Positions 58,382 through 59,700 of a DNA stretch of 64,000 nt are shown here, in pieces (the stretch's first letter is position 1; every line of letters begins with the position of its first letter). This stretch comes from a virus. Taxonomy: Duplodnaviria; Heunggongvirae; Uroviricota; Caudoviricetes. The notes under the pieces are model-generated. The model did no database searches and was not told the origin of the DNA. It saw nothing but the letters and a program-made list of their open reading frames with translations. A program made the translations under genes and the position numbers. The DNA is taken from IMG/VR virus record IMGVR_UViG_2703718815_000003; one strand, 5' to 3'.

Positions 58382-59503
58382 ATGGTATGGTCGATTAGGT
58401 ATCATTCAGTTTCAAAATTAACCAAAGACACTGATAAAATGCCTGTTTTGTTAATCCTCATACTTGGGACAGTGATGATTATTTTCTGGGATACCGTCAA
58501 GGAAAACGTAGAGGTCATAGGTACACTTGCCACTTCACTTGCATTTTTCGCCACAGCATGGGCCGCTTACGAGGCAAGGCATAGTGCAAAGGCAGCAATG
58601 AGGGCCACTAGGCTGACGGCAGCTTCACTCCTTGAAATGAAAAAAGCCTCTTTTAAGGAATGGTACGGCATATTACTTGAACAGCATAATAGATTACTTG
58701 AGGATGTTAACAAGACCTTGCAGGATGATAGGGAACTTAATGCAAAACTGGGAACGAATCTCATCAAGGCTATTTATTACCATGTAACCAAAAACTCCGT
58801 TTACATTAAATATATTAACCACATAGTTTTAATTCTTGATTATTTAGATAAAGACTTCTATTCGCCGTCATCAGCCGATTATGAAAAGAGAGCTTACATA
58901 GAACAGCTGCGCAACAGCATTAGTCCTAATGTAAGCCTGCTGATAGCTACATTCGGCCTTAATATTGACACTAATAAAACCTATGACGCAAAGAGGCTTT
59001 ACAGCCTGCTAAGCAAGTATAACTTCTTCGAAGGCCAACTTTTTTTTGAAGAAGCAATATCGAAAGTTCATTATTTGGACTCTTATGCTGCTGTGATATT
59101 TGATAACGAATACCGAAAAGATGTAGAGTTTTATGTTGAAGAAATGGTTCGAGGTCGTGAGACCCCTAAAATCGATTCAAGATATCGTCATTTAAGGGCT
59201 ACGTTCGCAATTCTGTGGTCTTACAACAACCCCTGCCGACAACATTTGCTTCAAAGATTTAATGACCTACCTATGCATATGCGAAACAGCATTGAGCTGA
59301 GGATGGAAAATGCAGCCGATAAAGTAGCTGAGTTCAACTCTTTGTTACTTGGTTTTATAGGCTGGGAGCTTAGAATCGCAGGTAATAAAGTGAGGGTGAT
59401 CAAGGATGAAAAACATTTAAAGAGGCTAATAAAACTCAACGATAAGTATCCTATTCCCCCCCCGAGAGAAAGGTATTCTGTTAACCAATGGTTTCACCAA
59501 TAG
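58382..59503 (+). CDS. membrane-anchored protein of unknown function (two N-terminal TM helices + about 300-aa domain)
   Basis: Track ORF ATG 58382 (alternative ATG 58439 at MPVLLILILG...); AT-rich; plus strand. Confidence 0.6.
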   Translation: MVWSIRYHSVSKLTKDTDKMPVLLILILGTVMIIFWDTVKENVEVIGTLATSLAFFATAWAAYEARHSAKAAMRATRLTAASLLEMKKASFKEWYGILLEQHNRLLEDVNKTLQDDRELNAKLGTNLIKAIYYHVTKNSVYIKYINHIVLILDYLDKDFYSPSSADYEKRAYIEQLRNSISPNVSLLIATFGLNIDTNKTYDAKRLYSLLSKYNFFEGQLFFEEAISKVHYLDSYAAVIFDNEYRKDVEFYVEEMVRGRETPKIDSRYRHLRATFAILWSYNNPCRQHLLQRFNDLPMHMRNSIELRMENAADKVAEFNSLLLGFIGWELRIAGNKVRVIKDEKHLKRLIKLNDKYPIPPPRERYSVNQWFHQ

Positions 59504-59534
59504 ATTCGCTGATGAGATTAAAAATAGTCTGTCT

Positions 59535-59672
59535 ATGTATAAGTTAGAAAATGCCTATTTAGCACTCAACTCTAATCAACACAAAGAAAAGGTGATTGAT
59601 GAAATTGTTGTTGAAGTTGAGAAAATTGTCGATAAATTTAAAGCAGAACTTGATTCTTTGGATTTCAACTAA
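59535..59672 (+). CDS. small protein (45 aa)
   Basis: MYKLENAYLALNSNQHKEKVIDEIVVEVEKIVDKFKAELDSLDFN*; followed by strong terminator; not in 60-aa track. Confidence 0.35.
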   Translation: MYKLENAYLALNSNQHKEKVIDEIVVEVEKIVDKFKAELDSLDFN

Positions 59673-59674
59673 GC

Positions 59675-59700
59675 AAAAAGGGGCCGAAGCCCCTTTAATT
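59675..59700 (+). terminator. rho-independent terminator
   Basis: aggggccgaagcccct + T-rich. Confidence 0.6.

Follow-up and report, generated by a model that had tools for sequence, protein, structure and literature searches.

A probable AbiC/AbiP-type mobile cassette with a frameshifted gene in an SSU5-like phage-plasmid

The 64,000-nucleotide (nt) stretch of DNA analyzed here (IMG/VR record IMGVR_UViG_2703718815_000003, Caudoviricetes), which we refer to at its full length as the window, is an SSU5-like phage-plasmid by megablast of positions 56000-62000. Between its glutaredoxin gene (grx) and a tRNA array it carries a short plus-strand region that was initially annotated as a module of two genes, one for a membrane-anchored protein and one for a separate protein of 45 amino acids (aa). 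The explanation that we favor for the whole, and consider probable with real room for doubt, is a mobile cassette of AbiC/P type holding one gene that is frameshifted and most likely inactive in this copy. Sequence comparisons place the product in what appears to be a divergent, currently unclassified Enterobacterales branch of the AbiC/AbiP (putAbiC) single-protein abortive-infection (Abi) group. Several features described initially hold up. The region lies on the plus strand within surroundings transcribed from the minus strand, which carries nearly all genes of the window including the neighbors of the cassette and the tRNA array. Its G+C content is low (36-41% for the region and 38.4% for the gene, versus 45.8% for the window), two hydrophobic segments are present at the N-terminus of the product, and a terminator-like hairpin is found at the end (59677-59696). 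The division into two genes and the position of the start codon do not survive comparison with related sequences.

Reading frame and native product

Two plus-strand open reading frames (ORFs) can be called in the window sequence, at 58382-59503 (373 aa) and 59535-59672 (45 aa), and the second is called as a protein on at least nine public contigs from independent samples (for example WP_158003936.1). Both nevertheless map in order onto one profile, PHROG 18168 (408 positions), the 373-aa ORF matching positions 1-335 (E 6e-154) and the 45-aa ORF positions 363-406 (E 7e-13). In the plasmid pRHB19-C05_2, which is 99.9% identical over the module, there is a single continuous coding sequence (WP_149457310.1), and direct alignment over 1461 nt reveals one difference only, a run of eight cytosines (C8) in the window versus C7 in the plasmid at 59456-59463. 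Deletion of one C in silico yields an uninterrupted ORF to 59672. All nine near-identical copies in PLSDB and RefSeq are one base shorter than the window, intact alleles occur on ~85 contigs of the 90% cluster, and with fragments excluded all 66 homologue clusters fall between 395 and 445 aa, a single continuous ORF of that length being the state of most relatives. The methionine of the 45-aa ORF is not conserved (it is R in homologue P0001 and R, S or another residue in further alleles), no Shine-Dalgarno sequence lies upstream of this ORF, and in the structure model the 45-aa segment packs as the final helices of the fold. On these comparisons the region is a single gene for a 410-aa membrane-anchored protein, and the 45-aa ORF is the last 45 codons of its native C-terminus, the single extra C in the window having cut the coding sequence short at 354 aa and left part of the remainder to appear as a spurious ORF of its own. 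The comparisons revealed no pair of ORFs conserved apart from each other and translated independently. A membrane protein with a distinct 45-aa helical partner, as in a toxin-antitoxin or an effector-regulator pair, is therefore a most improbable reading, already refuted at the level of sequence, since the split into two ORFs hinges on one base.

The start had been placed at ATG 58382. This codon falls inside a conserved -35 promoter element and its equivalent is out of frame in a P2-like copy, and we rejected it; 31 diverse homologues all begin with MP(V/A/I)LLILILG, which corresponds to ATG 58439, and initiation there gives the intact length of 410 aa. The frameshifted 5′ part of the gene thus occupies 58439-59503 (+) and reads natively for 341 codons (to 59461) before 13 codons in the wrong frame lead to a stop. 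The 69 native C-terminal codons and their stop, delimited by PHROG 18168 and the repaired translation, lie in another frame at 59463-59672 (+) and are lost from the product. In the model this lost part has a predicted local distance difference test (pLDDT) score above 85 and forms two strands and two long helices, and it holds conserved positions. The ratio of nonsynonymous to synonymous substitution rates (dN/dS) for the repaired window allele against Enterobacter and Salmonella alleles is 0.19-0.21, which shows the intact gene to be under purifying selection; for the lost C-terminal part the ratio is 0.42. The copy in the window is, judged from its reading frame, most likely inactive.

Hydropathy analysis of the native product places a first transmembrane (TM) segment at residues 1-17 (Kyte-Doolittle (KD) value 2.6) and a second at about residues 26-44 (KD 1.57, borderline), separated by an acidic loop of nine residues with a charge of -2. 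The segment after TM2 has a charge of +4, with seven K or R in 31 residues, and by the positive-inside rule the protein is predicted to have an N-in TM hairpin and a large cytoplasmic domain of 360 aa. The model shows both TM segments as helices, and both are conserved throughout the family, the TM2 motif ATAWAAYEAR being the most conserved stretch of the protein, and the remainder is modeled as a helical domain. A sequence-profile search of the PDB returned nothing below E 0.07, and Foldseek against BFVD gave no match below E 0.05.

Probable kinship with AbiC and AbiP and proposed function

The relationship to the AbiC/AbiP group comes from profile comparisons. The family is small: a profile search through 1.84 billion proteins recovered only 83 representatives (clustering at 50% identity), and those whose source organism is visible all come from Enterobacterales. 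PF16872 (putAbiC) is matched by 51 of the 62 full-length members, and six distant members scanned singly reach 25-37 bits against a gathering score of 22. The profile of the window subfamily itself reaches three relatives (P0084, P0085 and P0086) at E 7e-38 to 8e-35, and these score 32-37 bits on PF16872. Among the 62 relatives the PADLOC AbiC model matches nine and the AbiP model six, and the name that NCBI gives to distant relatives is 'putative phage abortive infection protein'. Alignment by hhalign of the window subfamily with 47 distant relatives, most of which match putAbiC, has a probability of 100% and E 4e-45 over 407 columns that span the TM hairpin, the putAbiC core and the C-terminal region. 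The window subfamily therefore has significant full-length homology to proteins above the putAbiC threshold. It also possesses an N-terminal TM anchor, by hydropathy and model, as do AbiC with two helices and AbiP with one, and it shares with the distant relatives the motifs LLEQHN, S-x-Y-(I/M)-(K/R), (L/V)R(N/S)xI and FFE. The suggestion of an abortive-infection function gains support from this full-length homology, and the accompanying one of a toxin-antitoxin or other two-protein system falls with the 45-aa ORF.

A number of observations weigh against this assignment. The window protein has no match to putAbiC in Pfam, nor one in PADLOC or NCBIfam, when E values as high as 1 are admitted, and direct searches of Pfam, PADLOC and NCBIfam with both ORFs returned noise only. 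Neither the window protein nor P0001 reaches the putAbiC gathering threshold of 22 bits, four close members of the subfamily (P0066, P0069, P0078 and P0080) scanned singly also stay below it, and the PADLOC AbiC and AbiP hidden Markov models give zero matches for the window protein. Its link to putAbiC is, on these sequence searches, transitive. The histidine of FFEH, invariant in the putAbiC-positive distant set, is G or N in the window subfamily, and the profile of the 47 distant relatives did not reach Lactococcus AbiC directly, probably as a result of the word-indexed search. In the literature searched we found no tested phenotype for the window subfamily or for the Enterobacterales putAbiC set, and the mechanism of AbiC is itself unknown (PMC13064643). 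A membrane-anchored prophage protein could also act otherwise, for example in entry exclusion, and C8 might conceivably reflect a homopolymer error, which would leave the gene intact here. One paper on 'AbiC' (PMC13590631) was set aside, as it concerns the unrelated Abi_C/AbiJ HEPN domain. Defense surveys of SSU5 phage-plasmids and of P2/P4 hotspots list no AbiC, which fits classifier models that miss this branch.

The resemblance to Lactococcus lactis AbiC (Prf) consists of the two TM helices and a helical domain for which the PDB offers no match. The window protein differs in being ~410 aa long (AbiC has 344 aa), in loss of the FFEH histidine, in lacking a direct match to Pfam, PADLOC or NCBIfam models, and in its hosts, which are temperate phages and phage-plasmids of Enterobacterales rather than lactococcal plasmids. 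AbiP shares with it a membrane anchor and a probably related extra-membrane domain, and differs by having one TM helix and a shorter chain and by the lack of a direct sequence match from the window protein. A 2026 review of lactococcal Abi systems, which gives the TM helices as two in AbiC and one in AbiP, reports that AbiC decreases production of the major capsid protein, that AbiP binds RNA better than single-stranded DNA, requires its membrane anchor and is triggered by a phage major tail protein, and that AbiP stops the transcription switch (PMC13064643). Nucleic-acid binding, the need for an anchor and a major-tail-protein trigger make AbiP the most concrete mechanistic analogy.

The cassette would be expressed at a low level from its own sigma-70-type promoter, antisense to the phage genes, during lysogeny in the plasmid state; its leader has no Shine-Dalgarno sequence. 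The product would be a sensor-effector tethered to the inner membrane, with an all-helical domain in the cytoplasm, that stays inert until a late or structural protein of a superinfecting phage activates the cytoplasmic domain, by analogy with AbiC and AbiP. The activated domain would then block the expression of phage genes or the replication of the phage, perhaps by binding nucleic acid as AbiP does, and the aborted infection would protect the lysogen population and the phage-plasmid with it. The copy in the window would be switched off by its +1 frameshift. The analysis shows one gene with a frameshift, homology to putAbiC proteins, movement between elements and purifying selection; the defense function, its trigger, its mechanism and the loss of activity are inferred.

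The same N-terminal anchor, its encoding on a temperate element, transcription against the lytic genes and a fold of no assigned function would also suit a membrane-acting lysogenic-conversion protein that blocks DNA entry or perturbs the envelope (Sie/Imm-type exclusion), or one with a role unrelated to phage, and it is TM2, within the anchor itself, that carries the best conserved motif. We consider this explanation unlikely, since the domain of 360 aa is predicted to be cytoplasmic and hence not at the site of entry, and since the studied proteins to which putAbiC homology points act after DNA entry, AbiC on capsid protein and AbiP on RNA and the transcription switch (PMC13064643).

Length variation at the poly-C tract

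The frameshift lies in the poly-C tract at 59456-59463 (+), which is the sole run of G or C of at least 7 nt in the window. Alleles from independent assemblies fall on two backgrounds. On background A (TATT-Cn-GAGAGAAAGG), to which the window belongs, the in-frame length is C7 and lengths of C6, C7 and C8 are seen; on background B (TAT-Cn-GAGAGAGAAG) the in-frame length is C8, and C7 and C9 are seen. Together these imply at least four independent length changes. Out-of-frame alleles account for ~10% of contigs, in a set that was collected with the 45-aa ORF as query and is therefore a biased sample; all PLSDB and RefSeq copies, as well as the four of four anchor-based hits in IMG/VR and metagenomes, are in frame. 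The tract is confined to the E. coli clade, where it encodes IPPR; other alleles read FDPR, FNAR or similar, and those of Enterobacter, Salmonella and Klebsiella show no conservation of it. We read the tract as a mutational hotspot at which a probably costly gene is repeatedly knocked out. Partial rescue of the C8 allele is conceivable through programmed +1 frameshifting by the ribosome, or through slippage during transcription, on CCC_CCC_CC; the tract is, as noted, not conserved.

Two further observations concern individual alleles. In OEQX01000022.1 an in-frame allele carries a C to T change that leaves C6 (TATTT-CCCCCC, homologous to window 59455-59463), and by its sequence this is a natural stabilized version of the tract. 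The background-B alleles of CP164373.1 and SRR30896213 have a further single-base deletion in a C4 run at 59163 (window-homologous position), CP164373.1 also has T8 reduced to T7 at 59040 (in the tract homologous to window 59040-59047), and in both the gene is in three ORFs, reflecting either real decay or homopolymer error in long reads.

As only one base of an 8-nt homopolymer is affected, and as the cassette otherwise matches intact alleles at 100% identity with no sign of further decay, the C8 of the window might be a miscall of a true C7 molecule with an intact gene. We give this little credence, as C8 on the same background recurs in separate assemblies, LOIP01000054.1 on the one hand and SRR13972114 and GCA_029870855.1 on the other (the latter two share three single-nucleotide polymorphisms), and other out-of-frame lengths are found as well, C6 in ERR9793810, C9 in ERR4784719, and C7 on background B in CP164373.1 and SRR30896213. 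The remaining indels between the window and pRHB19-C05_2 are intergenic, occur as compensated pairs or lie at gene ends, which does not point to an error-prone assembly and is how real differences between good assemblies would be expected to look.

The same variation can be taken as that of a contingency locus, at which slipped-strand changes in poly-C would switch the gene ON and OFF and produce lysogen populations of mixed state, hedging protection against the cost or self-triggering of an Abi system. Its appeal is that an intragenic repeat varies in length between isolates and toggles the frame, with changes in both directions at one site on both backgrounds, that no other G/C run of this length exists in the 64 kb, and that out-of-frame alleles show little other decay. 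Pseudogenized defense genes are reported to be rare in P2/P4 hotspots (PMC13586616), by contrast with which an OFF share of ~10% stands out. That share comes from the biased 45-aa query, however, and the anchor-based, PLSDB and RefSeq copies are uniformly in frame; the tract is unconserved in the other three genera and interrupted by C to T in one allele, and from base composition we calculate that chance would give ~0.65 such runs in 64 kb. Phase variation based on C8 is not known from E. coli whose mismatch repair is intact. The contingency genes of Neisseria, Haemophilus, Campylobacter and Bordetella likewise have an intragenic G/C homopolymer whose length varies and toggles the frame, and the present case differs from them in its E. 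coli host, its short tract (7-9) and the absence of conservation across the gene family. A genuine switch accordingly seems to us an outside prospect next to repeated loss of the gene at a hotspot.

The cassette, its mobility and its genomic setting

The promoter and leader of the AbiC-like gene occupy 58366-58438 (+), as identified by a sigma-70 scan and by nucleotide conservation across contexts. The -35 element CTGAAA (58377-58382, +; CTG(A/C)AA across copies) is separated by a 17-nt spacer from the -10 element TATCAT (58400-58405, +), which lies within the invariant GGTATCAT, and the same -35/-10 pair is the match returned by the scan. The leader is short and A/T-rich, with a conserved AATTAAC, and no Shine-Dalgarno sequence was seen in it ahead of ATG 58439. 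SSU5-like, P2-like, lambdoid and Pectobacterium chromosomal copies share ~75 nt of conserved nucleotide sequence upstream of the gene, and the sequence farther upstream is unrelated between contexts. At the other end, the hairpin GGGGCC-GAAG-GCCCC at 59677-59696 (both strands) has a G+C-rich stem of 8 bp (-15 and -13.9 kcal/mol) and is flanked by an A-run and a T-run. It is predicted to be a bidirectional intrinsic terminator, with the tail TTTAATTATTT on the plus strand and TTTTTGC on the minus strand after tRNA-Ser, and with runs on both sides it can also end the minus-strand tRNA transcript. In the P2-like, lambdoid and chromosomal copies, too, the hairpin comes immediately after the stop codon. 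Rfam showed no known RNA element inside the cassette.

In Escherichia phage Cyrano the gene is missing and the hairpin is kept; the junction falls exactly at the hairpin and includes a possible, weak remnant of the end of the gene of ~30 nt, which suggests that the gene was lost there by deletion or replacement. The alternative that the hairpin is pure backbone, raised by its retention in Cyrano, was dropped in view of its conservation behind the gene in all other element types. The mobile unit would thus comprise promoter, gene and terminator, at approximately 58366-59696.

The initial annotation had taken the region for accessory cargo, and the distribution of the gene bears this out. Of 635 related plasmid records 56 carry it, and Cyrano, CMS-2020a and SSU5 lack it, a patchy presence among close relatives. 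Beyond SSU5-like elements, homologues with promoter and terminator retained lie on the opposite strand in a P2-like prophage, between gpV and gpS, where P2 has orf30, and in a lambdoid Cedecea prophage, between the P gene and the nin/RusA region. The same promoter-gene-hairpin unit is found in a Pectobacterium chromosome, where its surroundings defied classification and an AAA_15/AAA_21 ATPase gene lies ~6 kb away. Distant putAbiC-positive relatives reside in an integrative and conjugative element (ICE) and in a P4-like island with integrase, AlpA and primase, with an HD-domain gene nearby in one of two sampled genomes. The recurrence of one cassette in P2-like, lambdoid and Pectobacterium contexts, together with its patchiness among close relatives, indicates by sequence comparison that it is mobile accessory cargo, swappable between elements.

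Within SSU5-like elements the slot is variable. In E. coli elements such as the window the cassette sits to the right of grx, before the tRNAs; in Enterobacter and Salmonella elements its annotated left neighbor is phoH; in pJN2-26 the slot holds an unrelated plus-strand gene of 304 aa and in Cyrano a gp49-family gene. The segment 58127-59674, which has no counterpart in Cyrano, delimits the slot in the window. An opposite-strand, low-GC, self-contained and swapped cassette resembles those of known prophage defense hotspots (P2 old/tin and Z/fun, P4, lambdoid morons), a likeness strengthened by the unrelated genes in the same slot of pJN2-26 and Cyrano. Unlike these, the SSU5 slot (grx/phoH to tRNA array) is not described as a hotspot in the literature searched, and the gpS-gpV position differs from the two P2 hotspots named in PMC13586616. 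The 304-aa gene of pJN2-26 and a 184-aa gene of Cyrano received no Pfam or PADLOC assignment, and the slot can thus not be demonstrated to be specifically a defense hotspot.

The stretch from the integrase through grx to the tRNAs is a general variable region. In the coordinates of the compared loci, Cyrano has the 184-aa plus-strand orphan (3919-4473, +) and the gp49-family gene (4900-5250, -), and pJN2-26 has the 304-aa plus-strand orphan (5581-6495, +) and a small ORF with a colicin-E1-immunity (Microcin) match (2455-2811, +); the SSU5 stretch examined has the extra genes of neither. In the compared locus of Pectobacterium brasiliense (interval 1-1521) the ATPase gene is followed by two unannotated ORFs, and from its gene content the locus may be a defense island. 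The AAA_15/AAA_21 domain pair is common in defense systems.

Divergent from the cassette and overlapping the start of grx is an ORF for a very basic 41-aa protein (58107-58232, -; MGNKRKQARRAARQAVKPKPR..., phrog_27585). This ORF adjoins the AbiC-like gene only in the SSU5-like elements of E. coli, Enterobacter and Salmonella, which places it outside the mobile cassette, and it was ruled out as a partner since it is missing from the P2-like, lambdoid and chromosomal copies.

As to the element itself, megablast of the same 6-kb interval identifies the Escherichia phages Cyrano and CMS-2020a as the nearest phages (~97% identity over aligned parts). The closest plasmid among those compared is the above pRHB19-C05_2 of E. 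fergusonii, with aligned blocks of 92-99.5% identity, mostly 96-99%, and the E. coli contig LOIP01000054.1 (GCA_001607335.1) is identical to the window across all 6138 nt available. The tRNA array comprises four genes, Ser, Thr, Tyr and Asn, at 59852-60398 (-). tRNA content differs among close relatives: tRNA-Tyr(GTA) at 60232-60318 (-) is missing from the Cyrano array (Ser, Thr, Asn), and SSU5 and pJN2-26 have tRNA-Asn alone within the stretch examined. A sub-threshold Rfam match to the gammaproteobacterial small RNA STnc100 at 59916-60084 (-; 41.3 bits versus a gathering score of 47, E 9e-7) covers part of tRNA-Ser at its 5′ end and continues into the 213-nt gap before tRNA-Thr. Elsewhere, the window has T8 at 21816-21823 where pRHB19-C05_2 has T6, a 2-nt homopolymer indel near the 5′ end of a minus-strand ORF of 225 aa (21196-21873) that may shift the start of that gene.

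Taken as a single gene, the region removes an annotation trap, in that the public 45-aa (WP_158003936.1 and similar) and 354-aa proteins are two pieces of one frameshifted gene. PHROG 18168, labeled 'hypothetical protein' and missed by Pfam, by PADLOC and by the DefenseFinder- and PADLOC-based surveys of SSU5 and P2 elements, is now linked to the AbiC/P group, to which it is by sequence a divergent addition and not a new kind of system. The family is shown to travel as a unit of promoter, gene and terminator among SSU5 phage-plasmids, P2-like prophages and lambdoid prophages. Should the defense function prove true, this branch would provide a model tractable in E. coli for a group that has lacked a known mechanism since 1992. 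Frameshifts that recur at a single homopolymer provide a testable case of either a costly defense gene that is repeatedly lost or a primitive phase switch, and the switch, if true, would mean a phase-variable phage defense encoded by a phage.

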